From Breznakia blatticola (GTDB lineage Bacteria > Bacillota_I > Bacilli_A > Erysipelotrichales > Erysipelotrichaceae): DNA of 21,045 bases. This document shows, in pieces, positions 1 through 15,728 of this stretch. Each line of letters begins with the position of its first letter. The stretch's first letter is position 1. The stretch lies in the NCBI RefSeq assembly GCF_004365815.1, contig NZ_SODD01000042.1:1-21045 (forward strand), written 5' to 3'. The translations under genes and the position numbers were made by a program. The notes beneath the pieces are model-generated. The model was not told where the DNA came from and searched no databases. It saw nothing but the letters and a program-made list of their open reading frames with translations.

Positions 1-263
1 CTTCAAGTTATAATTCCGAAAATTCATCAATTGCAATTCCGATTTTTTATCACTTGGTTTTCCGTTTTTTCTTCAAGTTAATTTTACAATTTACACTAAT
101 TACTCTTTATATTGTAGGATGGGCAATTTCTCTGCTTGATTTCAATTGCTATTTTTTATCTTTTTTAGTAATTGTGTTGGTCTTAACGAACTTTGCAAGC
201 AGAATAAAAGCAAAGAGATTTGTATGGAATGTTATCGCATATGATTTGAGTGTGAGAAATTAA
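1..263 (+). CDS. 3' end of a membrane-protein ORF that stays open to the left window edge (the listed 69-aa TTG ORF 54..263 is its tail)
   Basis: The frame of 54..263 has no stop codon back to nt 3. The translated tail is very hydrophobic, with TM-like segments FFFKLILQFTLITLYIVGWAISLL and YFLSFLVIVLVLTNF. There is no SD before the TTG at 54. No family recognised. Confidence 0.3.
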   Translation, partial: SSYNSENSSIAIPIFYHLVFRFFFKLILQFTLITLYIVGWAISLLDFNCYFLSFLVIVLVLTNFASRIKAKRFVWNVIAYDLSVRN

Positions 264-282
264 AAATCTAAATAAAAAGATA

Positions 283-861
283 TTAATTAAGCTGGCTTCT
301 TGTAGCCATACTTATATCAATACCTTTTTTATTTGCGATTATAACTTCTAAAGATAATCCATTTCTCACACCTTCAGATACAATCTCATTGAGTTTTAGC
401 AAACTGACTTGATCATACTTTAATCCTATTTTAGAAATAGATATAGTTTCTTTATAATCTTGGTGAGCTAAGTGATGATTATAGAAAAATTTCGGAGATT
501 TACATTCTTTTCTATCTGAACAGGCATTACACACATAAGGAAAACGTGTGGTTCTTTTGCATGTAGGTGTTTCACAAAAAATAGTGCAGAAGTCACTGCA
601 TTTATGGTATGAGCAAAATCTACAAAATCCATTTTGACAATCAGTGCATAAATGTATGGTCTTACAACGGAGTTGGTTACCATAGGGATTTTTAGCATTC
701 TTTCTTACATCCAAGATTATATGTTTATAGATTTCGTTTTTAATGCCTCGAGGATCTTTAGCAATCGAATTAGCGATATCGATTAGCTTTGCATCTTCGT
801 TAAGTAGTGTTTCGATAGACAAACGTTCTTTGTCTGATAAGTGTTTGTATTTATTAGTCAT
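283..861 (-). pseudogene. Truncated IS30-family transposase: N-terminal HTH plus Cys-rich region only, DDE catalytic domain absent
   Basis: The N-terminus (KHLSDKERLSIETLLNEDAKLIDIANSIAKDPRGIKNEIYKH) is the IS30-type HTH. A Cys-rich block follows (CTDCQNGFCRFCSYHKCSDFC...PYVCNACSDRKEC). The segment FFYNHHLAHQDYKE...LLKLNEIVSEGVRNGLSLEVI is typical of the clostridial Cys-rich IS30 subgroup, whose full-length members are, as far as I recall, more than twice this length. The ORF stops at aa 192, before any DDE motif. SD AAGGAAG lies ~10 nt upstream of the ATG. Confidence 0.7.
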
Positions 862-964
862 GGTATAGGCTTCCTTTCAAAGAAATAAAGGAAGAATAAA
901 CCTAGAGTATTATACTTGATTAATAGTATGAAATGATAGAAATAATATATAACTACATAAAAAA

Positions 965-1036
965 CGGACCTTTGAATTAAAATAAGACAAAAGCGGACTT
1001 TTCAAAAATAATTGAGGAATTCGTGCAACTTTTGAA
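965..1036. repeat. Three direct copies of a CGGAC/TGCAAC-(T)TTTGAA/TTTTCAA motif spaced ~29-31 bp apart
   Basis: aCGGACCTTTGAAtt (965-976), gCGGACTTTTCAAaa (994-1005) and gTGCAACTTTTGAAta (1024-1036). The spacing is about three helical turns, upstream of the truncated IS30 tnp. Confidence 0.35.
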
Positions 1037-1052
1037 TATTTAATTAAAGTGT

Positions 1053-1081
1053 TTGACATTCTGTTTTACATAAAGTAAAAT
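1053..1081 (+). promoter_or_regulatory. Near-consensus sigma-A promoter with no protein gene downstream
   Basis: TTGACA (1053-1058), exactly 17 nt of spacer, then TAAAAT (1076-1081). Predicted TSS is near A1088. Confidence 0.5.
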
Positions 1082-1087
1082 TCATGC

Positions 1088-1146
1088 AAGTAGAAAAACA
1101 ATTACGTTTTGCGGAGGGATATCATTAGATATCGCTCTATTTTTTT
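1088..1146 (+). ncRNA. Candidate ~60-nt small RNA, or orphan leader, bounded by the 1053 promoter and the 1113 terminator
   Basis: The promoter and an intrinsic terminator are ~30 nt apart. No ORF of 60 aa or more lies between 862 and 1691. No known RNA family recognised. Confidence 0.25.
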
Positions 1147-1150
1147 ATTT
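1113..1150 (+). terminator. Rho-independent terminator, plus-strand only
   Basis: Stem GGAG-G-GATATC / GATATC-G-CTCT: 6 bp, one G.G mismatch, then 3 Watson-Crick pairs and one G.U. The loop is ATTA. It is followed by ATTTTTTTATTT. The reverse strand has no T-tract. Confidence 0.6.
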
Positions 1151-1660
1151 AAAAACTAGATATCATTTTTTTCTTAATATTTCTTTTTGTTCTAGTAACA
1201 TTAAGTTATCAAATAAAATAACATATTGATTTATTGACCAAACGTCATATGATGTATTTGTATGATGGTTTGGATAATCAAGTATGAGTTTGTGGTAATA
1301 GAATGTTACTTAATTAAATTAAAAAAAAGATGTGTTGAAGTGAAAAACATTAAATTGTAGTTTTAAAGACTGTGATTTCGAAGTAAATGTCAGTGTACAT
1401 TGCAATAGACAATCCGTTAGGCTGACACAATTTTAAATGAGCATCTTATTTAAAACAAATATAAACAAATTGGACTACATATTGAAAATATAATTTCTAG
1501 TGAGCTGTTGGATTAAAAAGGAACTGCAAAATTATTTTAGTTAGTTTGACAGAAGGTAATAGGAAGATATCTGGAAGAAATTGCAAATGAAACTTCATAA
1601 GTCGCAAAAAATGCGACAGTTCAAAAAGAGATGGATATTTATATAGGGAGTTAGAGATAA

Positions 1661-1669
1661 TGTTATAAT
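1661..1669 (+). promoter_or_regulatory. Extended -10 promoter (TGtTATAAT) for the DUF3788 gene
   Basis: TGTTATAAT at 1661-1669, 37 nt upstream of the ATG at 1707. The -35 is poor. Confidence 0.4.
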
Positions 1670-1706
1670 AGATTTAGTTAGGCGTTGAGTCATGAAGGGA
1701 GATTGT

Positions 1707-2171
1707 ATGGAAAAAGTAATCCAACAATTATTGCGTGATCCGAATATAAAACCAACTGATGAATTAATTGCTGATGGTTTAGGAGAAGCAAACAATGCAT
1801 ATAAAAAGTTTATTGACGATTTAAAAGAGCAAAGCGTATTTCTTATGGATTGGCGATTTTATAATGATGGTAAAGCTTGGCTTTCTAAAGGTGAGTACAA
1901 ATGGATAACAAAACGAGGAACAAATAAAGTGAAACCTATCTTTTGGCTATCTATATGGGAAGGGTTATTTAAAGTGTCATTTTTCTTTGCTGAAAAAACT
2001 AGAGATGATTTAATGCGATTGCCTCTTAGTGAAGATACAAAATCACTGATCAAAAACACAAAACCACATGGAAAATCAATGCAGTATTTATCTGTTGTTT
2101 TTGAAGTTGGGAATGACACTGTTCTTAATGATATTTATACATTAGTAAAGTTTAGAAAAGAGAAAATATAA
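1707..2171 (+). CDS. DUF3788 family protein, function unknown
   Basis: Length and sequence pattern match DUF3788-type proteins as I remember them (MEKVIQQLLRDPNIKPTDELIADGLGEANNAYKKFIDDL...DWRFYNDGKAWLSKG...VSFFFAEK). I moved the start to the second ATG (1707) because SD GAAGGGAG sits 5-6 nt upstream of it. The listed ORF starts at 1692. Confidence 0.7.
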   Translation: MEKVIQQLLRDPNIKPTDELIADGLGEANNAYKKFIDDLKEQSVFLMDWRFYNDGKAWLSKGEYKWITKRGTNKVKPIFWLSIWEGLFKVSFFFAEKTRDDLMRLPLSEDTKSLIKNTKPHGKSMQYLSVVFEVGNDTVLNDIYTLVKFRKEKI

Positions 2172-2411
2172 TTATACAAACAAGTATGTAGTGGTGTTAA
2201 TAAAGAAATGTTTACATGAGTCCAAAAAAAGATGGGCCTGCTGAAGAAGTACTTATTAGACAAAACTTGATTGCTCAATAAATACAGAAACAATGGATAT
2301 ATAATCATCATCAGATGTAATTTGAAATGAATCACGTGCATTTTCTAGCATATTTATCATAGATTAAGCACGTTGAACTTAATTACTTAAATATCACCTA
2401 ATTTAATATGA

Positions 2412-2440
2412 AAATTAAGTAAAATTAACTTAAATTAAGT
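2412..2440. repeat. Three helically phased 10-bp repeats abutting the -35 of the antiterminator promoter
   Basis: AAATTAAGT (2412-2420), AAATTAACT (2422-2430) and AAATTAAGT (2432-2440), with exact 10-bp periodicity. An inverted near-copy ACTTAATTA lies at 2377-2385. Confidence 0.6.
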
Positions 2441-2468
2441 TGACAACGCTTTCATAATTCATTATTAT
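2440..2468 (+). promoter_or_regulatory. Sigma-A promoter of the antiterminator-PTS unit
   Basis: TTGACA (2440-2445), 17 nt of spacer, then TATTAT (2463-2468). SD TAGGAG lies 8 nt before the ATG at 2516. Confidence 0.6.
2441..2454. promoter_or_regulatory. cre-like (CcpA) box overlapping the -35
   Basis: tTGACAACGCTTTCAt matches the cre consensus WTGNAANCGNWNNCW with one mismatch (C for A at position 5). It has the central CG and TG...CA ends. Confidence 0.4.
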
Positions 2469-2515
2469 AAGGGTGTGGTCATGAAAAGAATGGAAAAGGT
2501 GTAGGAGTAGAAAGC

Positions 2516-3343
2516 ATGAAAGTGATTCGAAATATCAATAACAATGTCGCTGTCTGCGTTGATGACAACAATCATGAAGTTATTGCGTTTGGAAAAGGAA
2601 TCGGCTTTCAAAAAGCTCCATATGAGGTTTCATTAGATAAGATTGATCAAACATACTACAACTTAGATTCACACTATATCGCTTTACTTGATGAATTGCC
2701 TGCTGAGATTATGGAAGTTACGACGGAAATTGTTAAGAAAGGTAGAGCATATCTACAAGTTGATTTTAATAAGAGTTTCTTCTTCACGTTGTGTGATCAT
2801 ATACATTTTGCAGTTGAAAATGCTAAAAAGGGGCTTGTGATAAGTAACCCTATGGTAAATGAGATTCAACATTTATATGATAATGAAATCTTACTAGGAA
2901 GATGGGCAATTAAACACATTGAAAAAACAATGTCCGTAAAATTGCCAGAAAGTGAAGCGGGTGGAATTGCATTACATTTTATTAATGCGATGCAATCAAA
3001 GAAAACCACAACAGAAAAAGATGAAATTGAATATTTTGTTGAAGATGTTACAAATATCATCGAAAGTGAAATGAATCTGATTGTAGATCGAAGCGACTTT
3101 AGTTATTCGCGCTTTGTGACACACTTAAAATACTTGTTAAAACGTTCAAAGAACTTAGATAAGGCAAGTTCTGCAAATGTTGCAATGTATGAACAAGTGT
3201 TTCAACAGTATCCTGAATTAGCGGGAACTGTTGGGAAAATTAAAAACTATATTATGAATGAACTACATATAGAACCAAGTAAAGAGGAACTTCTATATTT
3301 GATCATGCATATCAATCGACTTTGTGCAAAAGAAGGATTGTAA
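2516..3343 (+). CDS. BglG/LicT/SacY-family transcription antiterminator (CAT RNA-binding domain plus PRD1 and PRD2)
   Basis: The N-terminal CAT motif is MKVIRNINNNVAVCVDDNNHEVIAFGKGIGF. Four conserved PRD histidine contexts are present: LCDHIHFAVENAK, GGIALHFINA, RFVTHLKYLL and LYLIMHINRL. The 275-aa length is typical. Confidence 0.9.
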   Translation: MKVIRNINNNVAVCVDDNNHEVIAFGKGIGFQKAPYEVSLDKIDQTYYNLDSHYIALLDELPAEIMEVTTEIVKKGRAYLQVDFNKSFFFTLCDHIHFAVENAKKGLVISNPMVNEIQHLYDNEILLGRWAIKHIEKTMSVKLPESEAGGIALHFINAMQSKKTTTEKDEIEYFVEDVTNIIESEMNLIVDRSDFSYSRFVTHLKYLLKRSKNLDKASSANVAMYEQVFQQYPELAGTVGKIKNYIMNELHIEPSKEELLYLIMHINRLCAKEGL

Positions 3344-3362
3344 CCTTAAGAGGGCTTTACCT
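3335..3362 (+). promoter_or_regulatory. RAT-like (ribonucleic antiterminator) element overlapping the antiterminator stop codon
   Basis: GGATTGTAACCTTAAGAGGGCTTTACCT compared with B. subtilis RATs (GGATTGTTACTG....CAGGCAAAACCT). The 5' part GGATTGTnAC is conserved. The 3' part is GGC-TTT-ACCT where RATs have GGC-AAA-ACCT. The 3' end runs into the left arm of the terminator at 3360. Confidence 0.5.
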
Positions 3363-3419
3363 GATGTACATAGACAGAACTGTTTTTGTTTTGTCTTTGT
3401 GTATCAGGTTTTTATTTTA
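3360..3419 (+). terminator. Long conditional intrinsic terminator between the antiterminator gene and the PTS gene
   Basis: ~21-bp stem, CCTGATGTACATAGACAGAAC (3360-3380) pairing with 3388-3408. It has 1 mismatch and 3 G.U pairs. The loop is 7 nt and it is followed by TTTTTATTTT. Confidence 0.8.
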
Positions 3420-3501
3420 GCTTATACAGAATGATATGCGCGCAACTCCATTCTGTTAGCATATAGAAAAAAGAGAGTATATAAGAGAGAGGAAAAATAT
3501 T

Positions 3502-4914
3502 ATGGCAAAATATACAGAACTTTGTAATCAAATTCTAGAAAATGTCGGTGGAAAAGATAACGTATCAGGTGCAGTACACTGTATGACTAGATTGCGATTA
3601 AATGTAAAAGATCGTTCAAAAGTGAATGTAGAAGAAGTTAGAAAAATTAAAGGAACTGTAGGGGCTCAGTTTTCAGGAGATCAGTTCCAAATTATTATTG
3701 GGCAACATGTCTCTGATGTGTATCCAGAATTTTGTAAGTTAGCAGGAATCAGTGCAGCAGATGCAATTGATGAAAATTTAGATTCAGAACCATTTAGTTT
3801 AAAAGCAGTTCCATCTAAAGTATTAGATTATGTATCAGGATCTGTAGCACAAATCATTCCAATTATGATGGGTGCTGGATTCTTCAAAATGTTCTATGCA
3901 ATCTTAGGACCAGATTTAATGAATGTAATGCCTAATGAATCACAATTCATGCAAATGCTTTATTTAGTAGGAAACGCAGGTTTTTACTTTATGCCAATAT
4001 TTGCTGCATGGGGTGCTGCGAAAAAGTTAAATACAAGTATTCCAATTGCGTTGCTTTTAGGAGCATTGCTTGTTGACCCTAACTTTATAAATATTGTAGC
4101 AGCTGGTGAACCATTTAATGTATATGGATTTATTCCAATGCAATTAAATAACTACACACAATCATTAATTCCAATTTTATTATCTGTTTGGGCGTTGAAA
4201 TACGTTTGGAGATTCTTAAACAAAATTATGCCTAGTGCGATTAAGGTTATTGGAGTTCCATTTGTTGCGGTTGTGATTATGGTACCACTTATGTACTGTG
4301 GACTAGCACCTATTGGAAACTGGATTGGTGAAGGAATCGCTATTATTGTAAATACTCTATACGATGTTGCTGGACCATTTGCGATTGCATTTATTGGAGC
4401 ATTCTGGATGTTCATGGTGGCAACAGGTATGCATATTGCAGCAATTCAAATTGCATTTATTAATATTGCTACCTTAGGATATGATCCAATCGTACTTGCG
4501 GGGTCAAATATTGCAAACTATGCATTAATGGGAATGATTGTTGCATACTTTATTCGTACAAAAAATGAAGAAAAACAAATGGCTGCAGCAAATATGATTA
4601 CTCTACTTGTTGGTGGAATTTCAGAGCCAACCCTATTTGGAGTACTACTTCGTAATAAACGTGCAATGATTGTACAAGTTATTGGTGGATTTGTTGGTGG
4701 CCTTGTTGGTGGCCTACTAGGTGTTGCAGTTTATACACTTGGAGCAGCCAACGTACTAACTGTTCTTCAATATGCAGGAGGACCTGGATCAAACTTTGTG
4801 AATGCGTGTATTGCATGTGGTGTCGCATTTGTGGTTGCTTTAGTTGTTGGAGTTGTTATTGGCTTCAATGATGATAGCAATGGAGAAGGATTCAAACTGT
4901 TCAAAAAGAAGTAA
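3502..4914 (+). CDS. PTS transporter subunit EIIBC, glucose/beta-glucoside/sucrose (Glc) superfamily; no EIIA domain
   Basis: The N-terminal EIIB has the phospho-Cys motif VHCMTRLRL. A polytopic EIIC follows. At 470 aa there is no room for a fused EIIA. SD GAGAGGA lies 9 nt upstream. Confidence 0.9.
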   Translation: MAKYTELCNQILENVGGKDNVSGAVHCMTRLRLNVKDRSKVNVEEVRKIKGTVGAQFSGDQFQIIIGQHVSDVYPEFCKLAGISAADAIDENLDSEPFSLKAVPSKVLDYVSGSVAQIIPIMMGAGFFKMFYAILGPDLMNVMPNESQFMQMLYLVGNAGFYFMPIFAAWGAAKKLNTSIPIALLLGALLVDPNFINIVAAGEPFNVYGFIPMQLNNYTQSLIPILLSVWALKYVWRFLNKIMPSAIKVIGVPFVAVVIMVPLMYCGLAPIGNWIGEGIAIIVNTLYDVAGPFAIAFIGAFWMFMVATGMHIAAIQIAFINIATLGYDPIVLAGSNIANYALMGMIVAYFIRTKNEEKQMAAANMITLLVGGISEPTLFGVLLRNKRAMIVQVIGGFVGGLVGGLLGVAVYTLGAANVLTVLQYAGGPGSNFVNACIACGVAFVVALVVGVVIGFNDDSNGEGFKLFKKK

Positions 4915-4936
4915 TGTAATTACCTATGGATAGAAA

Positions 4937-4970
4937 AAAGGTTCAAGATGTTACTTGAACCTTTATTTAT
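4937..4970. terminator. Bidirectional terminator shared by the convergent PTS and LacI-family genes
   Basis: Perfect 11-bp stem AAAGGTTCAAG / CTTGAACCTTT with loop ATGTTA. A T-rich run follows on the plus strand (TTTATTTAT) and a T6 run on the minus strand (TTTTTTCTAT). Confidence 0.7.
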
Positions 4971-5965
4971 ATCGAATTGCGAAGTATAAGTTCCGTATTG
5001 ATTTCAATTTTTACATGCATGTTGTCATGGTCACGAATAGAACTCAATAGACGTTTCGCAGCAACAACACCCATGTATGATTTTGGAACATGAATTGTGG
5101 TAAGCGGTGGATCTACATACGTTGCATAAGGAATGTTATCAAAACCGATGATAGATACATCTTCTGGTACTCGATATCCTTTTTCCTTTAAAGCACGCAT
5201 TGCACCAATCGCAATTTCATCATTATCTGCAAAATAGCATGTGGCAATGGGTTCGTTATGATTCAAAATTTCTAACATGTCTGCATACGCTCCATCAAGA
5301 GATGGAGATAGATGATGAATAATCGATTTTGATGTTGGCATAGAATTCTTGCGAACGGCATTAAAGAAGCCGAGAGTACGCTCACTAAAGTTGACGATAT
5401 TCTGTGTGGAATGTAAATATCCAGGTTGTTCATGTCGCTTCTTAATTAAGTAGTCAGTTGCGGTTTCCGCACTATCCACGTTATTGATGGTTACACAATC
5501 TGCATTCACATTTGGAAAGTAAGAATCAAGTAACACTAAAGGAATATCAAGTTTCTGAAATGGTTCAAAGTCATCACGTGACATGGTTGTTCCTAACAGA
5601 AGGATACCTTCAAAATTGTAGGATTGAATGGATTTGATTTTTTCATGAATATCATCGAGATCGTGTATATGAAGAGCAAAAAGCTGATACCCATTTTCCT
5701 TGATGACTTGTTCGACACTTGTTGCAAGTTCAGTAAAAAAGGGTGTATCAAATACAAAGTTCTTATGAAAGAAAATAAATGCGATTGTGTTAGAGCGAAA
5801 GTTCTTTTGATTGATTCGCGTAAAATCATATCCCATTTCTGTAGCTACATCGATAATTTGATGTCGCATCTCTACACTAACGCCGGGTTTATTATTAAGT
5901 GCCATTGAGACAGCAGCTGCAGATATCCCCATCTTCTCGGCAATTTGTTTCGCTGTTACTTTCAT
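4967..5965 (-). CDS. LacI-family transcriptional regulator
   Basis: The N-terminal HTH_LacI motif is MKVTAKQIAEKMGISAAAVSMALNNKPGVSVEMRHQIIDVATEMGY. The C-terminus is a periplasmic-binding-protein-like sugar-binding fold (SIIGFDNIPYATYVDPPLTTI). SD GGAGG lies 6 nt upstream. Confidence 0.9.
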   Translation of the reverse strand: MKVTAKQIAEKMGISAAAVSMALNNKPGVSVEMRHQIIDVATEMGYDFTRINQKNFRSNTIAFIFFHKNFVFDTPFFTELATSVEQVIKENGYQLFALHIHDLDDIHEKIKSIQSYNFEGILLLGTTMSRDDFEPFQKLDIPLVLLDSYFPNVNADCVTINNVDSAETATDYLIKKRHEQPGYLHSTQNIVNFSERTLGFFNAVRKNSMPTSKSIIHHLSPSLDGAYADMLEILNHNEPIATCYFADNDEIAIGAMRALKEKGYRVPEDVSIIGFDNIPYATYVDPPLTTIHVPKSYMGVVAAKRLLSSIRDHDNMHVKIEINTELILRNSI

Positions 5966-5989
5966 TTGAATCCTCCTAGTTGTAATTCA

Positions 5990-6018
5990 ATTATAAAGTA
6001 AATTAAGCAAAATGTAAG
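5990..6018 (-). promoter_or_regulatory. Probable promoter of the LacI-family gene
   Basis: On the minus strand: CTTACA (6018-6013), 17 nt of spacer, then TATAAT (5995-5990). It is overlapped by the imperfect palindrome TTGTAATT-C-AATTATAA (5980-5996). Confidence 0.4.
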
Positions 6019-6054
6019 AGTATAAGTGAAAATTAAGTAAAAAGGAGTTAATAC

Positions 6055-7539
6055 ATGATTAAACAAATCAAAGAAATTCCCATCACCAATGATAGTTATC
6101 CTTTTGCAAGTGCAAGTCGATATCTAGATCTTGATGCATATGGGTATGTAGAAAAAGAATATTATATCGACGGTCTAGCGAATGTATATGAAAGTATAGG
6201 GAATACAGGTGAAGTTCGTGTTGCATATGAAAATGTTGCATACCGAAATCGTATCATCGTTCGAGCACCAAAAGAAGTAACGAAAGCAAGCGGTAATGTT
6301 GTAATTGAAATCATAAATCCAACCTCATTTATGGAAATTGATCGAATGTGGATTTTAACGCATGAGAAATTCATGCGTGATGGAGATATCTATGTTGGAA
6401 TTACTAGTAAACCGAATACTATTGCCAAGATGGTTGCATTTGATAAAAAACGATATGAAAGTCTACAATGGCCAAATCCACGAGAAGATGTAGAACTGCC
6501 ATTTACAAATGAACAACTACTTGCAAGTGGGTTACTTCCAGATGTAAATATTGAATATGAACCTGGTTTGTTTTGGGATATGTTGAGTAATCTTGCTTGG
6601 ATGCTTAGAAGTGATGATGTACAAAATCCTATTGCTACGTATCCACATACATATGTGTACTTAACTGGATGGTCAAAATCTGCATGTTATGTATTTCGAT
6701 ATGTAAACAGTTTTGCATATCGCAAAGAAGTCGCAAAAGATTCGCAAGTATTTGATGGTTATCTTGCAGGTGGTGGAGTGCGCTCAATGGTTGTTCCTGT
6801 GAATCAATATGAATCATTATATGCATATGATTATCGACTCAAACGTGTAGAAAAGGTAAAACAACCTTTTATATCTATTCAAACAGAAAGTGAAAATGGC
6901 TGGTTTGATGCGTTTCGTACGAAACGTCAGGACAGTGATCATCCAAACTTCTTATATCGTGAATATGAAATTGCTGGTGCTAGTCATGACACGATGTTTA
7001 GTTATGTGGATTACTACAAACAAGATGAAGATTTAAAACGAATTGATATGTTACCTAAGTATGATGCAAAACATGCATATGGCAATAACTACCCATCACA
7101 GTTTGCATTTGCAGCAGGATTTAAGAATCTATTTCGTTGGGTTCGTGAAGGTGTTGGACCAGCAAGTTGTATGCACATTGCAATGGATGAACAAGGAAAT
7201 AATCGTAAAGATGCTTTTGGAAATAGTATTGGTGGATTACGTACATGTTTACTAGATTATCCAACTGGACAATATGGTATTGCTAGCACAATTGAAAAAG
7301 GAAAAAGTTTCTTAGATGCAACAGCAACAACGAATCCACTATTTGGATACGAACAACCATTTCCTGCCAGCATGCTTGAAGTGTTATATCAAGATGCAAA
7401 ACAGTATACTGCTTTATGCAAAGAACATACAAAAGAACAAGTATCAAAAGGATTTATCTGTAAAGAAGATGAAGAAGCACTTATTAACTTTGCGGTAAAT
7501 CTAGCAATAGAAAGAGGATTACCAATTTGCAAAAAGTAG
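6055..7539 (+). CDS. Alpha/beta-hydrolase-domain protein of unknown specificity (resembles the 'Abhydrolase_10' type); cytoplasmic
   Basis: The N-terminal pattern YVEKEYYIDGLANVY...YRNRIIVRAPKE...SGNVVIEIINPT matches my memory of that family. There is a nucleophile-elbow-like LTGWSKSA and a late AGASHD (candidate His). No signal peptide. SD AAAGGAG. Family assignment is from memory only. Confidence 0.55.
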   Translation: MIKQIKEIPITNDSYPFASASRYLDLDAYGYVEKEYYIDGLANVYESIGNTGEVRVAYENVAYRNRIIVRAPKEVTKASGNVVIEIINPTSFMEIDRMWILTHEKFMRDGDIYVGITSKPNTIAKMVAFDKKRYESLQWPNPREDVELPFTNEQLLASGLLPDVNIEYEPGLFWDMLSNLAWMLRSDDVQNPIATYPHTYVYLTGWSKSACYVFRYVNSFAYRKEVAKDSQVFDGYLAGGGVRSMVVPVNQYESLYAYDYRLKRVEKVKQPFISIQTESENGWFDAFRTKRQDSDHPNFLYREYEIAGASHDTMFSYVDYYKQDEDLKRIDMLPKYDAKHAYGNNYPSQFAFAAGFKNLFRWVREGVGPASCMHIAMDEQGNNRKDAFGNSIGGLRTCLLDYPTGQYGIASTIEKGKSFLDATATTNPLFGYEQPFPASMLEVLYQDAKQYTALCKEHTKEQVSKGFICKEDEEALINFAVNLAIERGLPICKK

Positions 7540-9125
7540 AAAGATATCGAACAACTATTTTGTCTTTTGAAAGCAAAAAGGAATATGCGAATCCATTTTT
7601 GGATTGTATCATCCAAGCAACTTTCACTGGGCCTAATCAAGAAACCATTGTTCGTGAAGCATATTGGGATGGTGCAAACACATACAAAATTGCCTTTGCA
7701 CCTACAATGGTAGGAACTTGGACATATCAGCTACAAGCAAGTGAAGATAGTGGATTGCATCAATACACTGGTGAAGTAATCTGTGTACCATATGAAGGAA
7801 ATCTATCTATTTACAAACATGGGTTTGTGAAAGTCAGTGATACGAAAACCTATTTTACATATGCAGATGGAACCCCTTTTTTCTGGTTAGGTGATACGCA
7901 TTGGGAATTTGCCTATAAAGAATCTTGGGATACATCCAATCACCCGAAAATGAATAGTATGTTTAAAGGCATGGTAAATCGTCGAGTAGAGCAAGGATAC
8001 AATGTGTATCAAACCAACTTGCGAAGTGATGCAATGATGGGGTTTGAAAAAAACTATTGGCAAGAAAAAGATATTCCAAATGTGCAATTCTACCAAGAAG
8101 AATTGGATCGTAGAATGTACTGCCTAGCAGATCATGGAATTGTAAATGCATTAGGTTTGGCATGGTTTATGTCAATTGAAAACAATGTGGATACATATAA
8201 ACACTTAGCACGCTATATCATTGCACGTTATGGTTCTTTACCAATGATATGGACACTTGCTGGTGAGGTTGGTGGATATGATAAACAAAGACAACCTTTC
8301 TATATTGAAAATTGGCGATATGTCGCTAAAGAAATACAAAAGTATGATGGATATCACCATCCACTAACTGCACATTATACAAATGAACGTCCTTTTGCTT
8401 CATATTATCAAGATGAGGAATGGCTTGATTTTACACTTAATCAAGCAGGACATGGAGACTATGTAGTAAGTATTGATGACTATCATGAATTTCTAAGTAA
8501 ACATAGAGATATGCCATTTATTGAAGGTGAATGCTTTTATGAATTTTGTTCGACGCTTGAAGAAAACGGTCCAAGATTGTGTAGTGCAGATATGATGCGA
8601 CGTGTTGCATATGTAAGTATCCAAGCAGGTGGCTGTGGATATACATATGGGGCACAAGGAATTTGGGATTGTGTATATGAAAAAAATCAACCCAATACGA
8701 TGTCGCTATTTAATCGCTATGACATTACATGGTATGAAGCAATCGATGGTATCGGAGGATATCAAATGGGCTACATGAAGAAATTTTATGAGCAGCAACA
8801 ATTTTGGCTACTTTCACCATATAAACAAGAAAGCGAAATCATCAAAAATCCATTTGGGAAAAAATTGCCTGCCGTAAGTATGAATAAAGAACACACACAT
8901 TATGTTCTATACTACAGTGAATCTACACGAAAAAGTGGAAATCTAGAAGGGCTTAGTAATGGAGCGTATATCTTGGAATGGTTTAACCCAAGAAGCGGTG
9001 AATATGAAATGAAAGAAAATGTAGAAATAGAGAATCATACATTTAGCATACCAACCAAACCAGATACAAATGACTGGTGCTTGGTATTAAAGAAGAAGGA
9101 AGAACACACGTATGAAGAAAATTAA
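7527..9125 (+). CDS. DUF5060 (N-terminal Ig-like) + DUF4038 (GH140-like TIM barrel) + C-terminal beta-sandwich glycoside-hydrolase-like protein; cytoplasmic
   Basis: The hallmark DGTPFFWLGDTHWE motif sits at the start of the DUF4038 barrel. Also present are IWTLAGEV, NQAGHG, the YVSIQAGGCGYTYGAQGIWD region, and a C-terminal YILEWFNPRSGEY typical of the 'collagen-binding-like' beta-sandwich. The TTG start at 7527 has SD GAGGA 8 nt upstream and overlaps the upstream gene by 13 nt. No signal peptide. Confidence 0.75.
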   Translation: MQKVERYRTTILSFESKKEYANPFLDCIIQATFTGPNQETIVREAYWDGANTYKIAFAPTMVGTWTYQLQASEDSGLHQYTGEVICVPYEGNLSIYKHGFVKVSDTKTYFTYADGTPFFWLGDTHWEFAYKESWDTSNHPKMNSMFKGMVNRRVEQGYNVYQTNLRSDAMMGFEKNYWQEKDIPNVQFYQEELDRRMYCLADHGIVNALGLAWFMSIENNVDTYKHLARYIIARYGSLPMIWTLAGEVGGYDKQRQPFYIENWRYVAKEIQKYDGYHHPLTAHYTNERPFASYYQDEEWLDFTLNQAGHGDYVVSIDDYHEFLSKHRDMPFIEGECFYEFCSTLEENGPRLCSADMMRRVAYVSIQAGGCGYTYGAQGIWDCVYEKNQPNTMSLFNRYDITWYEAIDGIGGYQMGYMKKFYEQQQFWLLSPYKQESEIIKNPFGKKLPAVSMNKEHTHYVLYYSESTRKSGNLEGLSNGAYILEWFNPRSGEYEMKENVEIENHTFSIPTKPDTNDWCLVLKKKEEHTYEEN

Positions 9126-10512
9126 ACTTGGTTTTGCACCTACAAGAAGAAGTATATTTTCAGCTCCAGCAGCAGAACAATATGCAAATTTAACAAGAAA
9201 GAAATTAGAAGAACTACAAATTGAATTTGTCGATATTAAAGAATTTAGTAGTGATGGATTATTGCATGATGATCGTGATCGAATAGAAATCGAAGCATAT
9301 TTCAAACAAGAAAAGATTGATGGTTTATTTGTGCCACATGGAAATTTTGGAACCGAATATGAAGTTGCTCGACTTGCTAAAGCACTAGACGTTCCCGTTT
9401 TATTATGGGGTCCTAGAGATGAAAGACCAAATGAAGAAGGTATTCGTCTTCGTGATAGTCTATGTGGATTATTTGCTACAGGTAAAGTATTACGTCGATT
9501 TCAAGTACCATTTACATACTTATGTAATTGCGATTTAGATGATCCTGAATTCGAAAGAGGAATTAAGAATTTTATTGCGGTGTGTAATGTTGTAAAAGCA
9601 TCTAAAGATATGCGCATCTTACAAATAGGACCACGTCCATTTGATTTCTGGTCAACGATGTGTAATGAAGGAGAATTATTAGAAAAATTTAATGTACAAC
9701 TTGCACCAATTCCTTTACCAGAACTAACAAAAGAAATGAACTTGGTAAAACAAGAAGAAACGGAAGTAGAAAAAACCATTGCATATTGTAAAGAGAACTT
9801 CAATATCGCTATTACAGATGAACAATTGGAAAATGTAGCAGCTTTGAAAGTCGCAATGCGCAATCTAGCAAAAGCGTATGGATGTCGTGCAATCGCAATT
9901 CAATGTTGGAATGCATTACAAGATGAAATTGGAATCATGCCATGTGCAGCAAATAGTTTGCTAAATGAAGAAGGATTACCAGTTGTTTGTGAAACTGATA
10001 TTCATGGAGCAATTACATCAATATTGGTTGAAGCAGCAGGCATGGATGAAGCAAGAAGTTTCTTTGCTGATTGGACCGTTCGTCATCCAGATAATGATAA
10101 TGCTGTTCTGTTGCAACACTGTGGACCTTGGCCTATTTCATGCGCTGCATGTAAACCAACGATTGGTTATCCGCTAGCATTCTCTTATCCTGGAACTGTT
10201 GAAGCACAAGCAAAACAATCTGACATGACACTTTGCCGTTTTGATGGTGACAATAGTGAATACTCTTTACTGCTAGGAAAAGCAAAAGGAGTAGAAGGGC
10301 CATATACAAAAGGAACCTATGTGTGGGCAGAAGTAGAAAATTGGAAGCGATTAGAAGCAAAAATCGTGGAAGGACCATATATTCATCATTGTGTAGGAAT
10401 TCATAAAGACATTGTGCCAATACTATATGAAGCATGTAAGTATATCGGAATTACTGTTGATCTATATGATGAGAATGAAGAAGAAGTAAAGGCATATATA
10501 CGAGGTGAATAA
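9112..10512 (+). CDS. L-fucose/L-arabinose isomerase superfamily protein (aldose-ketose isomerase, substrate unknown)
   Basis: Size (466 aa) and motifs are typical of FucI/AraA-like family proteins: KLGFAPTRR at the N-terminus, LRDSLCGLFATGKVL, VCETDIHGAITS (metal/catalytic Glu-Asp region) and LLQHCGPWP. The ATG overlaps the upstream gene by 14 nt. Confidence 0.75.
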   Translation: MKKIKLGFAPTRRSIFSAPAAEQYANLTRKKLEELQIEFVDIKEFSSDGLLHDDRDRIEIEAYFKQEKIDGLFVPHGNFGTEYEVARLAKALDVPVLLWGPRDERPNEEGIRLRDSLCGLFATGKVLRRFQVPFTYLCNCDLDDPEFERGIKNFIAVCNVVKASKDMRILQIGPRPFDFWSTMCNEGELLEKFNVQLAPIPLPELTKEMNLVKQEETEVEKTIAYCKENFNIAITDEQLENVAALKVAMRNLAKAYGCRAIAIQCWNALQDEIGIMPCAANSLLNEEGLPVVCETDIHGAITSILVEAAGMDEARSFFADWTVRHPDNDNAVLLQHCGPWPISCAACKPTIGYPLAFSYPGTVEAQAKQSDMTLCRFDGDNSEYSLLLGKAKGVEGPYTKGTYVWAEVENWKRLEAKIVEGPYIHHCVGIHKDIVPILYEACKYIGITVDLYDENEEEVKAYIRGE

Positions 10513-10513
10513 A

Positions 10514-11332
10514 ATGAATGAATTAAAGAGAAAAAGTTACGAATTACGAAAAGATATTATTGAAATGATGTATGCATCAAAAGCAGGACATGTCGGAGGG
10601 GACTTAAGTGTTGTAGACATTTTAACTGTACTGTATTTTGAAATTATGAATATTGATCCAAAGAATTTTGAAGATCCAAATCGTGATCGTTTCTTATTAA
10701 GTAAAGGGCATTGTGCAGATGCATTATTTGCAGTATTAGGAGAACGTGGATTTTATGATAAACAAGAAGCAATCCAAACATTTTCAAAGTATAATTCAAA
10801 GTTTATTGGACATCCTAATACCGAAGTGCATGGAGTAGAAATTAACTCAGGATCACTGGGTCATGGCTTATCTATTGGTGTTGGTATGGCGTTAGCTGCC
10901 AAAATGAATGATCAAGAATATCGTACATATGTCGTACTTGGAGATGGTGAAATGGCAGAAGGTTCTAACTATGAAGCAATGATGGCTGCTAGTCAATATC
11001 ACCTAGATAATTTATGTGCCACAATCGATGTAAATGGATTACAGATTAGTGGAACTACAGATGAAGTGATGTCCACTGCTTCACTAGCAAATAAATTTGC
11101 TGATTTTGGGTGGCATGTAATTGAAGTAGCAGATGGAAATGATTGTATGCAATTAGTCGATGCGTATACACAAGCGATGCAAATGAAGGAAAAACCAACA
11201 GTAGTGATCGCTCATACAGTAAAAGGCAAAGGTGTCTCTTACATGGAAAATCAAAAAAGTTGGCATCATGGTGTGATGAATGAAGAGCAGTATAAACAAG
11301 CCATTCGTGAAATTGAGGAGGTTCTAGCATGA
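10514..11332 (+). CDS. Transketolase, N-terminal (thiamine-diphosphate-binding) subunit
   Basis: Motifs GHVGGDLSVVDILTVLYF, SKGHCADALFAVL, GSLGHGLSIGVGMALA and VVLGDGEMAEGSNYEA (GDG TPP motif). I prefer ATG 10514 (SD GAGGTG 6 nt upstream) over the listed GTG at 10505. Confidence 0.9.
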   Translation: MNELKRKSYELRKDIIEMMYASKAGHVGGDLSVVDILTVLYFEIMNIDPKNFEDPNRDRFLLSKGHCADALFAVLGERGFYDKQEAIQTFSKYNSKFIGHPNTEVHGVEINSGSLGHGLSIGVGMALAAKMNDQEYRTYVVLGDGEMAEGSNYEAMMAASQYHLDNLCATIDVNGLQISGTTDEVMSTASLANKFADFGWHVIEVADGNDCMQLVDAYTQAMQMKEKPTVVIAHTVKGKGVSYMENQKSWHHGVMNEEQYKQAIREIEEVLA

Positions 11333-12255
11333 GTACAATAACAAATCGACAAGCTATCTGCGATGTATTGGTGGAGCAAGCAAAAAATGACAAGGATATT
11401 GTCGTGGTGTGTTCTGATTCACGAGGGTCTGCATCACTTGCAACTTTTGCATCAACATATCCAAAACAATTCGTAGAAGTCGGCATTGCCGAACAAAATC
11501 TTGTTGGTATTTCAGCAGGACTAGCAAGTTGTAATAAAAAAGTATTTGCAGCATCCCCAGCAAGTTTTATTAGTACACGTAGTTATGAGCAAGTGAAAGT
11601 TGATGTTGCATATTCAAATACAAATGTCACACTTATTGGTATTAGTGGAGGAGTCAGCTATGGTGCACTAGGGATGACACATCATTCATGCCAAGATTTT
11701 GCAGCGATGTGTGCACTTACTGGAATGCGTGTATATTGTCCAAGTGATCGCTTTCAAACGACAAAACTTATGCAAGCATTACTAGAAGATGATAAACCAG
11801 CATATATTCGTGTAAGTCGCTCAGCAACCGAAGATGTATATGATGAAACGATTGATTTTCAATTTGATAAAGCAAACGTAATTCAACAAGGGACAGATGT
11901 TGTATTGATCGCATGTGGAGAAATGGTACCATATGCCAAAAAAGCAGCAAAGCAGTTGGAAGCATTAGGTATTTCCACTGGACTCATTGACATGTATTGT
12001 TTAAAACCATTTGATCAAGAAACGTTATTCGAGCAAACAAAACAGGCAAAACTTGTGGTCAGTATTGAAGAACATGCACCTCAAGGAGGACTTGGTAGTT
12101 TTGTTGCTCAAGCATTATCTATGCACCAACCAAAACGAATGATACAATTATGTTTACCAGATGAACATTTGATTTCAGGAACAAATAAAGAAATGTTTGC
12201 ATACTACGGATTGGATGAAGATGGGATTGTTAAAGCAGTCCAAAATGCATTATGA
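11329..12255 (+). CDS. Transketolase, C-terminal (pyrimidine-binding plus C-terminal domain) subunit
   Basis: Motifs FVEVGIAEQNLVGISAGLA and IGISGGVSYGALGMTHHSCQDFA. ATGA start/stop overlap with the N subunit. SD GAGGAGG. Confidence 0.9.
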   Translation: MSTITNRQAICDVLVEQAKNDKDIVVVCSDSRGSASLATFASTYPKQFVEVGIAEQNLVGISAGLASCNKKVFAASPASFISTRSYEQVKVDVAYSNTNVTLIGISGGVSYGALGMTHHSCQDFAAMCALTGMRVYCPSDRFQTTKLMQALLEDDKPAYIRVSRSATEDVYDETIDFQFDKANVIQQGTDVVLIACGEMVPYAKKAAKQLEALGISTGLIDMYCLKPFDQETLFEQTKQAKLVVSIEEHAPQGGLGSFVAQALSMHQPKRMIQLCLPDEHLISGTNKEMFAYYGLDEDGIVKAVQNAL

Positions 12256-13703
12256 GTTACATTCTAAGCATTGATCAAAGTACGCAAGGAACGAAAGCTA
12301 TACTCTTTGATGATAAAGGAAATATTGTAAAACGTGTTGATAAAGCACATCAACAGTTGATTGATGCAAATGGATATATTTCGCATGATCCAAATGAAAT
12401 CTTTGATAATGTTGTAAGTGTAGTTTCTGATGTGATTGCACAAAGCAAAATTGATGCAAATACAATTCAAGCAGTAGGGATTAGTAATCAAAGAGAAACA
12501 ACAGTTATGTGGGATGCAGATGGTCATACATTAGCAAATGCTGTGGTATGGCAATGTTCAAGAGCAAGTGAAATTGCCAAACGATATGAACCGTATAAAG
12601 ACGATATCTTTGATATAACAGGTCTTGTATTATCACCGTATTTTCCAGCAAGTAAGATGCGTTGGTTAATTGAATATGTGCAACCACAAGCACCATACTA
12701 TTTTGGTACAATGGACACTTGGTTAATTTACAAACTAACCAACCAACAAGTATATAAAACGGATGCATCGAATGCATCAAGAACACAGTTGTTTGATATT
12801 CATACAGGAACTTGGTCGAATTACTTATGTAATTTGTTTGAAATTCCTAAGCAAGCATTGCCTGAAGTTTGTGATAGTAATGCATGCTTTGGGTATACAG
12901 ATTTCGTCGGATTACTAGAAAAGCCGATTCCAATATGTGCAGTTATGGGGGACTCGCACGCATCACTTTATGGGCAAGGTTGTCATGCGCAAGGACAAGT
13001 AAAAACAACACTAGGTACGGGTTCATCAATTATGATGAATATTGGAGATAGTTATAAAAAAAGCACGAATGGTCTAACGACATCACTTGCTTGGAAAATT
13101 GATGGAAAACTTGAATATGTTTTTGAAGGAAATGTTAATTATGCTGGTGCAGTAATTACTTGGCTTCAAAAGGATTTACAACTTATAGATGAACCAGATG
13201 ATACAATAGAAGCAATAGCAAGAAGTAATCCAGATGATGAAACGATTCTTGTGCCCGCTTTTTCTGGATTATCTGCACCATATTGGAAAGAAGATGTTCG
13301 TGCATTATTTTATGGGATGAGTCGTACCACAAAAAGAAATGAATTAATTAAAGCGACTGTAGAAAGTATCGCTTTTCAAATAAGTGATGTTCTCCACGCG
13401 ATGGCTAAAGATAGTGGGTTGCATTCATTAGAAGTAAAAACGGATGGTGGGCCAAGTAAAAATCCATATCTCATGCAATTTTTAAGTGATATGGCACGTG
13501 CCACTGTCTATGTATCGAGCCAAGAAGAACTATCCGCTATTGGTGTTGCGTATATGGCAGGAATAAAAATGGAGATATATCATAAAGAAACGATCTTTTC
13601 TAAGCAAACTTACAAAATATATGAAACGAAAATGGAAATATCATTATGGAAGCAATACATGGATCGATGGAACCATGCAATAGCGGTCTTATTACATACA
13701 TAG
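12252..13703 (+). CDS. FGGY-family carbohydrate kinase, glycerol-kinase-like subgroup (substrate unknown)
   Basis: Motifs YILSIDQSTQGTKAILFD, GISNQRETTVMWD, VVWQCSRA, and GDSHASLYGQG in the FGGY_C region. ATGA overlap with the upstream gene. Confidence 0.9.
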   Translation: MSYILSIDQSTQGTKAILFDDKGNIVKRVDKAHQQLIDANGYISHDPNEIFDNVVSVVSDVIAQSKIDANTIQAVGISNQRETTVMWDADGHTLANAVVWQCSRASEIAKRYEPYKDDIFDITGLVLSPYFPASKMRWLIEYVQPQAPYYFGTMDTWLIYKLTNQQVYKTDASNASRTQLFDIHTGTWSNYLCNLFEIPKQALPEVCDSNACFGYTDFVGLLEKPIPICAVMGDSHASLYGQGCHAQGQVKTTLGTGSSIMMNIGDSYKKSTNGLTTSLAWKIDGKLEYVFEGNVNYAGAVITWLQKDLQLIDEPDDTIEAIARSNPDDETILVPAFSGLSAPYWKEDVRALFYGMSRTTKRNELIKATVESIAFQISDVLHAMAKDSGLHSLEVKTDGGPSKNPYLMQFLSDMARATVYVSSQEELSAIGVAYMAGIKMEIYHKETIFSKQTYKIYETKMEISLWKQYMDRWNHAIAVLLHT

Positions 13704-13712
13704 GAGGAGTAT

Positions 13713-15012: not shown

Positions 15013-15042
15013 AAGATCTGCAAAAAAATGTAGATCTTTTTT
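15013..15042 (+). terminator. Operon-end intrinsic terminator
   Basis: AAGATCTGCA / TGTAGATCTT is a 10-bp stem with one G.U. The loop is A-rich and it is followed by TTTT. Confidence 0.75.
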
Positions 15043-15074
15043 ATATGACACGTATAGGTATTTTGCATGGTTGT

Positions 15075-15083
15075 TGTTATACT
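15075..15083 (+). promoter_or_regulatory. Extended -10 (TGtTATACT) placed 6 nt before ATG 15090
   Basis: TGTTATACT at 15075-15083, then AAAGTT, then the ATG. No SD. Confidence 0.4.
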
Positions 15084-15089
15084 AAAGTT

Positions 15090-15728
15090 ATGAAGACTCA
15101 AAACCAATTAAATAAAATTTGTATATTTAGTGAATCTCATGAGTTCTTGTGGGAGAATTTCTTGCGTCGAAATCCTGTTTTGAAAATAGATTTGGATACA
15201 AATATAAAAACATGTTATCCAAGTTCGTATTATGTAAATGGAGTTGAGTATCATATTCCATATCGCATTGGCTATGAAGTAAAAAAACTAAAGCACTCCA
15301 ATACGCATGAAAAAGTGATTGCATACTGTCTTATGAGTCGACATCATAATGGATTTGTGCGAGAGAAATATCTCAAAAAATTACTAAAGAAAAAATATTT
15401 TCAACAATATCCATTTGTAGTAGCGTATGTGCTGCGTCTTGTTGGTGAGTATGTTGAAGAAATATGGGATGTTGTATACGAACATAAACATTTGTTTGAT
15501 AATGAAACAACAAGAGTATTTATTTATGAAAATGATCGGTTCATAGATAAGATGTTTCAAAGAAGTTACTCATATTTTAGCAATAATCGTTTTGGTGAAC
15601 CCTTTAAGAAACGATATCTAATGAATCCGATAATTTGTAAAGGACCTTTGCTGAATGGATCTTCCAATTATAAACTATTATCATATGTAGTAAGTCTTAA
15701 ACAAGTGATATATCGAGAAGATATATAG
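15090..15728 (+). CDS. Hypothetical protein, no family recognised
   Basis: Long ORF with host-like composition. The listed start at 15045 sits inside the upstream terminator T-tract and has no SD. The internal ATG at 15090 lies 6 nt after an extended -10, giving a candidate leaderless start. The start is uncertain. Confidence 0.55.
   Translation: MKTQNQLNKICIFSESHEFLWENFLRRNPVLKIDLDTNIKTCYPSSYYVNGVEYHIPYRIGYEVKKLKHSNTHEKVIAYCLMSRHHNGFVREKYLKKLLKKKYFQQYPFVVAYVLRLVGEYVEEIWDVVYEHKHLFDNETTRVFIYENDRFIDKMFQRSYSYFSNNRFGEPFKKRYLMNPIICKGPLLNGSSNYKLLSYVVSLKQVIYREDI

Follow-up and report, generated by a model that had tools for sequence, protein, structure and literature searches.

A phosphotransferase permease and its antiterminator as the probable uptake and sensing arm of a conserved locus for apiose-bearing plant glycosides in Breznakia blatticola

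We examined a contig of 21,045 bp from Breznakia blatticola (NZ_SODD01000042.1), hereafter called the window, in which the gene for a transcription antiterminator is followed by the gene for an EIIBC permease of the phosphotransferase system (PTS), a convergent gene for a LacI-family regulator and a seven-gene catabolic operon (Table 1). Comparisons with related loci indicate that the antiterminator and the permease probably serve for uptake and sensing within a single conserved locus devoted to apiose-bearing plant glycosides. A preliminary description of the same stretch had listed the antiterminator with a ribonucleic antiterminator target (RAT) and a terminator, an EIIBC protein without an EIIA domain, the convergent LacI gene and a shared bidirectional terminator, and all of these elements were recovered where it had placed them. 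It had also reported that GH1 and GH4 genes and ABC or MFS importers were missing, and none of these was found among the open reading frames (ORFs) of at least 80 amino acids that were scanned, a limit that leaves short nested ORFs outside the scan. Since the window is the entire contig, this and all other statements of absence, including those on EIIA and phospho-glycosidases, describe the contig and not the genome.

The contexts of the EIIBC gene were collected from look-ups of the exact protein, a scan of 185,579 species genomes and a metagenome scan, and the window proteins were mapped onto the loci obtained, here referred to by L numbers. Homologs with 61% to 99% amino acid sequence identity to the window EIIBC protein and enough flanking DNA were in all cases encoded beside genes for Abhydrolase_10 and GH140-like proteins or for isomerase and transketolase proteins, whereas none of the 12 loci with homologs of 47% identity or less (in Collinsella, Bulleidia, Weissella, and others) contained these hydrolase or catabolic genes. 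The hosts in the upper range of identities were Erysipelotrichaceae (Allobaculum and metagenome-assembled genomes) and Lachnospiraceae or other Clostridia, including Lachnospiraceae bacterium 47-T17, Eubacterium plexicaudatum ASF492 and isolates from the mouse gut. A check of co-occurrence in related genomes had been proposed in the preliminary description, and its outcome is that the PTS pair and the hydrolase and catabolic genes form one conserved neighborhood.

The gene order within this neighborhood differed between the loci. L001 (99% EIIBC identity) had the layout of the window as far as its contig reaches, and L002 and L040 (77% to 79%) had the same layout with additional genes for EIIA, GH43, and a glycosidase-like protein of 860 amino acids upstream; an equivalent of the bidirectional-terminator hairpin was also present in L002. 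The Lachnospiraceae loci L003 to L015 (71% to 75%) had the order EIIA-(GH43)-antiterminator-EIIBC-Abhydrolase_10-GH140-GH140, and many of them also contained a GH1 gene. No LacI gene intervenes in these loci, so that the hydrolase genes are located directly 3' of the EIIBC gene. Genes for the isomerase and the transketolase were absent from them, and fragments of the FGGY kinase gene were seen only in the decayed locus of E. plexicaudatum ASF492. The same genes were found in shuffled arrangements in L009 and L018 (61% to 67%), and L016 (67%) combined the PTS unit with genes for LacI, isomerase, and transketolase on a contig that stops before any hydrolase gene. Judged by gene content across these loci, the conserved core consists of the genes for the antiterminator, EIIBC, Abhydrolase_10 and two GH140-like proteins, and the accessories are EIIA, GH43, the 860-amino acid protein, GH1, and a block of LacI plus catabolic genes.

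It was also noted that the genes upstream of the antiterminator gene differed, being those for the 860-amino acid protein, EIIA, and GH43 in L002 and L040, those for EIIA and GH43 in L042, L043, and L045, and those for DUF3788 and HTH_38 proteins in the window. In B. blatticola, the accessory genes may have been lost or moved away from this site, or they may be located past the break in the assembly. The accessory protein of 860 to 870 amino acids (positions 4205 to 6820 in L003 and 4233 to 6809 in L002) matched no Pfam domain and had a C-terminus resembling an alpha-L-rhamnosidase jelly roll (NCBIfam, E = 4e-19); in L002, its gene is preceded by a RAT and terminator of its own. It is probably an uncharacterized glycosidase of this regulon. 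The ASF492 locus (L006, L007, L008, and L011) appeared to be in decay, with the antiterminator split into ORFs of 140 and 123 amino acids, fragmented GH43 and GH140-like genes, and only a C-terminal fragment left of the FGGY kinase gene.

The permease contained PTS_EIIB and PTS_EIIC domains in the domain search. Its best model was that of the beta-glucoside IIABC permeases (TIGR01995), with 373 bits against a cut-off of 614.7, and since the alignment covered only positions 1 to 453 of the 618 positions in the model, the protein has no EIIA domain. The score, which does not reach the cut-off for beta-glucoside specificity, is lowered in part by the missing IIA region. The protein was below every curated specificity cut-off, and the best PTS models were those of the beta-glucoside and arbutin/salicin/cellobiose types. 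The motifs for transport were intact, with Cys26 in the EIIB sequence HCMTRLRL and with GGISEPTLFG (GISEP) in the EIIC domain. Exact-sequence look-ups of the window EIIBC and of a Breznakia homolog with 81% identity returned no entry.

No cognate EIIA, either as a domain or as a separate gene, was found on the contig. A separate gene for an EIIA protein of 152 amino acids adjoins the locus in L002 to L008, L010 to L016, L018, L019, L040, L042, L043, and L045, and the relatives' separate EIIA proteins were closest to the IIA part of beta-glucoside permeases. Since a dedicated EIIA gene adjoins the locus in most relatives, the one in B. blatticola may be located on another contig, and the suggestion in the preliminary description that the permease borrows the general EIIA-Glc was overstated. 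The motifs and the gene neighborhood suggest that the EIIBC protein is probably the importer and the uptake arm of the locus.

No other transporter was encoded within 10 kb of the locus in L002 and L003. Different transporters accompanied the hydrolases elsewhere. In Clostridium saccharoperbutylacetonicum and Coriobacterium glomerans, the genes for Abhydrolase_10 and GH140 were found with a GPH permease and an EIIC of the lactose/cellobiose family (with or without IIB); in a Bifidobacterium, they were found with GPH permeases; and a GH140 gene in Lacrimispora was located beside a gene for a full EIIBCA with 31% identity to the window EIIBC. The Abhydrolase_10 gene always adjoined a transporter gene in the related loci. 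These loci also contained from one to three GH1 genes of the 6-phospho-beta-glucosidase type, the GH1 protein of L003 scoring as a 6-phospho-beta-glucosidase with 618 bits. Furthermore, in a Solobacterium metagenome-assembled genome (L017, positions 237 to 5918), the gene for an EIIBC that was 59% identical to the window protein precedes genes for a ROK kinase, a GH78 alpha-L-rhamnosidase and RpiB. From its gene content, this locus looks like a sister system for rhamnosyl-glucosides with the same logic and another second sugar.

The antiterminator contained a CAT_RBD domain at residues 1 to 48 and two PRD stretches (E = 1.5e-34), and in an alignment to PDB 1tlv (LicT) the four regulatory histidines were kept (in DHIHF, ALHFIN, THLKY, and MHINR). 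Its score against the LicT model was 231 bits with a cut-off of 300, and by these matches it is classified as a member of the BglG/LicT/SacY PRD family and not as an equivalog of LicT, GlcT, or BglG. The RAT pattern GGATTGTWAC-N6-12-GGCWWWNCC had a single match in the window, with 0 expected, and 11 related loci had a RAT in the corresponding place. The RAT overlaps both the stop codon of the antiterminator gene and the 5' arm of the leader terminator, the stem of which had a predicted folding energy of -31.4 kcal/mol (z -4.97). As in known PRD-antiterminator systems, a RAT thus overlaps an intrinsic terminator located 5' of the regulated gene, and by these sequence features the leader is classified as a standard antitermination device of the LicT/BglG type.

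A second leader hairpin, with an invariant GCGCGC loop, was kept in 8 loci from two bacterial classes (L002, L007, L009, L012 to L015, and L019). Compensatory double changes were seen in 5 of its 12 predicted pairs, and its G-U pairs occur on the plus strand. An Rfam search returned no family for the RAT or for this hairpin, and two matches to microRNAs were due to chance. It was also observed that the relatives carry further RAT/terminator units ahead of the EIIA-GH43 genes and of the gene for the 860-amino acid protein.

The LacI-family protein had a LacI helix-turn-helix and Peripla_BP_1 and Peripla_BP_3 domains, and the preliminary description had considered it to be a regulator separate from the PTS unit. 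The two control regions of the window, however, had a 16-mer in common, TGAAAATTAAGTAAAA. Its interpretation as a direct repeat was rejected, since in comparison with other genomes the unit proved to be the palindrome ATTAAGY-N7-RCTTAAT of 21 bp. When up to one mismatch was tolerated, this palindrome occurred 3 times in the window compared to an expectation of 0.03, a number that none of 100 shuffled sequences reached. Among the 39 loci compared, it was found only in L001 (at the equivalent operon site), in L002 (twice at the antiterminator) and in Qiania L038 (between the LacI and isomerase genes). Pairs of palindromes 51 bp apart upstream of the antiterminator gene were present in L002 and L040 as in the window. 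Single palindromes and extra boxes were located upstream of the antiterminator gene in the metagenomic loci L042, L043, and L045, and 5 boxes were located in the LacI/Abhydrolase_10 region of the metagenomic loci L041 and L044; the LacI orthologs of these metagenomic loci were 61% to 62% identical to that of the window.

Boxes with the half-site ATTAAGY clustered in the LacI/isomerase regions of Qiania (P = 3e-8) and Lacrimispora (P = 1e-6) and, with P about 1e-5 to 1e-6, upstream of the antiterminator gene in L002, L016, and the window itself, and none was found in the Lachnospiraceae loci without a LacI gene between the PTS and hydrolase genes. Since the same palindrome is present at the promoter of the PTS unit and at the operon, and follows the LacI orthogroup, the two modules look cross-wired, and the regulator is probably not separate from the PTS unit. 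The simplest reading of this distribution is that the LacI orthogroup binds the palindromes and that the promoter of the PTS unit in Erysipelotrichaceae has joined its regulon. Where the LacI gene came from a more distant lineage, repeated boxes of the type AAATATTTAG replaced ATTAAGY (L009, positions 16020 to 16260 and 20960 to 21160; L035, positions 1390 to 1860 and 9465 to 10005; L036, positions 9790 to 10005), an indication that this pathway may be served by a second pair of regulator and operator.

The element TGACAACGCTTTCA, by the known consensus a putative cre (CcpA) site, overlaps the -35 hexamer of the antiterminator promoter, and sequences of the type TTGACAACGSTTWC recurred at regulon promoters in L002, L009, and L016. 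The form TGACAACGSTTWCA was seen over the -35 hexamers of promoters for the antiterminator, EIIA, EIIBC, and the 860-amino acid protein in several genomes (outside the window at about 8931, 6822, and 4120 in L002, about 1613 and 9045 in L016, and about 8877 in L009). These cre-like sites suggest a catabolite repression of the CcpA type that may extend over the whole regulon. The possibility that the cre-like TTGACAACGCTTTCA is instead a LacI operator was rejected, because it is also found at promoters with no adjoining LacI gene and fits the CcpA consensus better.

The operon encodes an isomerase with only a distant relation to the sulfoquinovose isomerase SftI (116 bits against a model cut-off of 700). 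The isomerase was 78% to 85% identical across many Lachnospiraceae and Erysipelotrichaceae and was always accompanied by the split transketolase and the FGGY kinase. In Qiania (L038) and Lacrimispora (L039), the isomerase module occurred with a divergent LacI gene, the product of which was 49% identical to the window LacI and is regarded as its ortholog in these Firmicutes. Between lineages, the isomerase was much better conserved than the permease or the hydrolases (about 65% to 78%), which points either to a strong constraint or to a recent horizontal spread of the LacI-isomerase-transketolase-kinase module.

The apiose cluster of Escherichia coli SE15 supports growth on apiose and contains no apsI gene (PMC13001218). 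Among the products of this cluster are an FGGY kinase, a split transketolase and an ABC transporter. The halves of the window transketolase were 43% and 33% identical to its two subunits, the kinase was 36% identical to its FGGY kinase, and the sub-threshold GlpK scores of the two kinases were the same (497 and 495 bits in the window and in E. coli, respectively). Since the identities are in the range of 33% to 43%, they indicate homology and not an identical specificity. We propose that the isomerase step would be apiose to apulose and that the FGGY protein would be an apulose kinase. The domain search identified no ABC transporter with an apiose-binding protein in the window.

Both GH140-like proteins matched the Apiosidase family PF13204 (E = 9e-62 and 3e-84 for the first and the second, respectively) and the PDB entry 8t9w, named "Apiosidase" (E = 1e-21 and 2.6e-28); the first also matched 3kzs and 5msy (E = 3e-18). 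No signal peptide was predicted for any of the 3 hydrolases, the Abhydrolase_10 protein and the two GH140-like proteins, in agreement with the cytoplasmic location that the preliminary description had given to its DUF4038 enzymes. The Abhydrolase_10 protein had an invariant G-W-S207 and H311 and is, judging from these residues and its fold, probably a cytoplasmic esterase. Its AlphaFold2 model (pLDDT 92.7, pTM 0.93) had only generic matches to alpha/beta-hydrolases and esterases with TM values of 0.31 or lower, and since FrsA and generic esterases were all that was matched, no specific function follows from the structure. FrsA was deposited in complex with EIIA (PDB 3our), which is probably coincidental. 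Searches of PDB sequences with the Abhydrolase_10 protein and the isomerase gave nothing useful.

From these components we propose the following scheme. The EIIBC protein, together with an EIIA of the glucose class such as that encoded beside the locus in relatives, would import a decorated beta-glucoside and phosphorylate its glucosyl residue, the most plausible substrate being a 2''-O-apiosyl-beta-glucoside with a free O-6 on the glucose. Flavonoid glucosides with a 2''-O-apiosyl group are common in plants (PMC10589286). The incoming substrate would drain phosphate from EIIB and thereby activate the LicT-type antiterminator, which would bind the RAT, block termination, and allow expression of the EIIBC gene. 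In the cytoplasm, the Abhydrolase_10 protein, probably a deacylase, and the two GH140-like enzymes would free unphosphorylated D-apiose. The isomerase would convert it to apulose, which the FGGY kinase would phosphorylate and the transketolase of two subunits would split, the chemistry of "D-apiose degradation I". The remaining 6-phospho-beta-glucoside would be cut by a GH1 phospho-beta-glucosidase, as encoded in related loci and not on the contig. As a member of the catabolic module, the LacI-family protein probably acts through the palindromes as a repressor of the operon and of the antiterminator/PTS promoter alike, and the cre-like site would add catabolite repression. The preliminary description had outlined a diglycoside model of this kind, with PTS phosphorylation of the glucosyl part and intracellular release of the second sugar; its logic fits the EIIA and GH1 genes of the relatives, the exchanges of transporter and the sister locus L017, and the identity of the substrate is a part that we still infer.

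That description had also regarded an ATP-dependent kinase as surprising beside PTS uptake. The premise is not supported, as the unphosphorylated half of disaccharides imported by the PTS is routinely served by a kinase, namely ScrK for sucrose and glucokinase for cellobiose, lactose, and trehalose. In the sucrose PTS regulon (scrA-scrB-scrK), which is often controlled by the LacI-family protein ScrR, one residue is phosphorylated by the PTS and the second sugar needs an ATP kinase; the window differs in that its proposed second sugar is the branched pentose apiose, which would also need an isomerase and a dedicated transketolase. Since systems for glycosides normally combine a PTS with a kinase, the finding leaves PTS logic intact.

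The sensing and uptake unit resembles Bacillus subtilis licT-bglPH and E. coli bglGFB in having a CAT/PRD antiterminator with four histidines, a RAT over a terminator, a permease of the glucose/beta-glucoside superfamily and a cre-like site. It differs from them in that the permease has no EIIA domain (373 bits against a cut-off of 615) and the operon no phospho-beta-glucosidase gene, and in the addition of GH140-like enzymes, an esterase-like protein, a pentose-type pathway and a second control of the LacI type. The GH140-like proteins share the PF13204 domain and significant sequence matches with 8t9w and with the GH140 endo-apiosidase from the RG-II (rhamnogalacturonan-II) locus of Bacteroides thetaiotaomicron (PDB 5msy/3kzs), the context of which is a Bacteroidetes polysaccharide utilization locus; in contrast, the window proteins are distant in sequence and predicted to be cytoplasmic, in a Gram-positive host and linked to a PTS.

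Lactobacillus acidophilus takes up dietary plant glycosides through the PTS and deglycosylates them inside the cell, with PTS permeases and phospho-beta-glucosidases (Theilmann et al. 2017, PMC5698550), although the substrates of these loci are mono- and diglucosides, and neither apiosidase-like enzymes nor a pathway for a released pentose are encoded there. According to Carter et al. (2018), cited in PMC13001218, the D-apiose degradation I pathway (also in an E. coli ST131 cluster) comprises apsI, aplK, and aptA/aptB, and the window resembles it in its FGGY kinase, split transketolase and aldose-ketose isomerase step. The known clusters import free apiose by an ABC transporter and have no glycosidases, whereas in the window uptake would be through a PTS, with apiose set free in the cytoplasm.

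Some observations weigh against the proposed scheme. There is neither an EIIA nor a phospho-beta-glucosidase gene in the window; the glucose O-6 is blocked in apiosyl-(1->6)-glucosides, so that only some classes of apiosides fit; and the GH140-like proteins are only distantly related to characterized apiosidases (E from 1e-18 to 1e-28). Furthermore, the 7-bp spacer of the palindrome and the lack of a central CG are atypical for LacI operators, and its assignment to the LacI protein is therefore correlative.

The substrate could instead be an oligosaccharide that contains apiose or another rare sugar and is not a beta-glucoside, such as a fragment of RG-II or apiogalacturonan, or the PTS could phosphorylate the apiosyl residue, with the kinase serving some other product. 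To our knowledge, the sole biochemically defined GH140 enzyme acts on RG-II. In line with such substrates, the permease scored under every curated specificity cut-off, the GH43 and rhamnosidase-like genes in relatives would also suit pectic fragments, and the conserved esterase-like protein could take off pectin-type esters. We nevertheless find this alternative unlikely, in view of the 6-phospho-beta-glucosidase-type GH1 genes in the related loci, the beta-glucoside and arbutin/salicin/cellobiose types of the best PTS models, the substitution by a cellobiose-type PTS in other lineages, and the redundancy of a conserved ATP kinase if apiose itself were phosphorylated. Phosphorylation of free apiose by the PTS was rejected, since the conserved core joins a transporter with glycosidases and the kinase would be redundant.

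A second alternative, already raised in the preliminary description, is that the EIIBC protein acts mainly as a sensor for the antiterminator, with the real importer encoded elsewhere in the genome. As in B. subtilis SacX/SacY, an EIIBC without EIIA is paired with a PRD antiterminator, and in the window the antiterminator gates only the EIIBC gene, with the hydrolases under a separate promoter. However, SacX is mainly a regulator, whereas the window EIIBC gene is in the position of a transporter gene and the relatives have a dedicated EIIA gene with the locus. The conserved neighborhood argues strongly against a pure sensor, in that no other transporter accompanies the locus in L002 and L003, the hydrolase genes of Lachnospiraceae directly follow the EIIBC gene, and other lineages place a different PTS or a GPH permease beside the Abhydrolase_10 and GH140 genes. 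With the transport motifs also intact, we consider a role mainly as sensor highly improbable. Finally, the notion that the PTS/antiterminator unit is an unrelated neighbor of the LacI-controlled operon, which might be drawn from their separate promoters, the bidirectional terminator between them and the different types of regulator, is refuted by an adjacency that is kept across two bacterial classes at 61% to 99% EIIBC identity and absent at 47% or less, as well as by the same palindrome at both promoters, and is left with practically no likelihood.

Table 1. Coordinates of the features identified in the window
Feature	Position	Strand	Remarks
HTH_38 gene (192 amino acids) and DUF3788 gene	1-2171		Upstream of the antiterminator gene; HTH_38 gene 282 bp from the contig end
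Candidate LacI operators	2363-2383, 2414-2434	+	Two palindromes, centers 51 bp apart, just upstream of the antiterminator promoter
Antiterminator/PTS-unit promoter, sigma-70-type	2440-2468	+	TTGACA, 17 nt, TATTAT; hexamers match at 11 of 12 positions
cre-like element TGACAACGCTTTCA	2441-2454	+	Overlaps the antiterminator -35 hexamer
BglG/LicT-family transcription antiterminator	2516-3343	+	275 amino acids; CAT_RBD and 2 PRD
RAT	3335-3361	+	Pattern match, unique in the window
Intrinsic terminator gating read-through into the EIIBC gene	3359-3419	+	21-bp stem at 3359-3409, then a U-run
Second conserved leader hairpin	3420-3460	+	Between the terminator and the ribosome-binding site
PTS EIIBC permease, glucose/beta-glucoside superfamily	3502-4914	+	470 amino acids, without EIIA domain
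Bidirectional intrinsic terminator	4937-4964		Common to the EIIBC and LacI genes; 11-bp stem, T-runs on both strands
LacI-family regulator	4967-5965	-	332 amino acids; convergent with the EIIBC gene, divergent from the operon
Divergent control region	5990-6052		LacI promoter on the minus strand (6018-5990), ATTAAGC box (6002-6008), third palindrome
Third palindrome ATTAAGTAAAAAGGAGTTAAT	6032-6052		Covers the ribosome-binding site of the first operon gene
Seven-gene catabolic operon	6055-14966	+	From the Abhydrolase_10 gene to the second GH140-like gene
Abhydrolase_10 (PF20091), serine-hydrolase-like protein	6055-7539	+
GH140-like protein	7527-9125	+	DUF5060, Apiosidase catalytic domain, C-terminal beta-sandwich
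Aldose-ketose isomerase, L-fucose/L-arabinose-isomerase-like	9112-10512	+	Fucose_iso_C
Split transketolase, AptA/AptB-like	10505-12255	+	N-terminal half 10505-11332, C-terminal half 11329-12255
FGGY kinase, GlpK-like	12252-13703	+	Below cut-off
Second GH140-like protein	13713-14966	+	Catalytic domain only
Operon-ending terminator	15013-15038	+
Unrelated genes (MerR, M28 peptidase, RsmF, PurA)			Beyond the operon terminator

It was also noted that an ORF of 227 amino acids at positions 15045 to 15728, just 3' of the operon terminator, matched no Pfam or NCBIfam family.

A literature search for PTS-linked apiosidases identified no paper. The literature searched contains no description of a PTS coupled to cytoplasmic GH140-like enzymes and an Abhydrolase_10 protein, of an apiose pathway that is supplied intracellularly, or of a LacI regulator superimposed on an antiterminator unit. 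The broader claim would be that an undescribed route for apiosylated plant glycosides exists in Gram-positive gut bacteria, in Erysipelotrichaceae and Lachnospiraceae as well as, combined with different transporters, in Clostridium, Coriobacterium, and Bifidobacterium. It would consist of PTS entry with phosphorylation, cytoplasmic apiosidases of the GH140 type with a new esterase family, apiose catabolism, and a LacI protein with an atypical spaced-palindrome operator acting on a PRD-antiterminator/RAT switch with an extra leader hairpin. We put the chances of this full claim at about even.

Dietary flavonoids, saponins, and pectin are commonly decorated with apiose, and the known bacterial catabolism of apiose begins with free apiose taken up by ABC transporters. 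If the proposed route is true, it would show how abundant Lachnospiraceae and Erysipelotrichaceae of the gut gain access to apiose and set bioactive aglycones free. Two uncharacterized groups, the Abhydrolase_10 proteins and the cytoplasmic GH140-like enzymes, would thereby acquire a role, and the locus would be a tractable case of repressor control added to an antiterminator.

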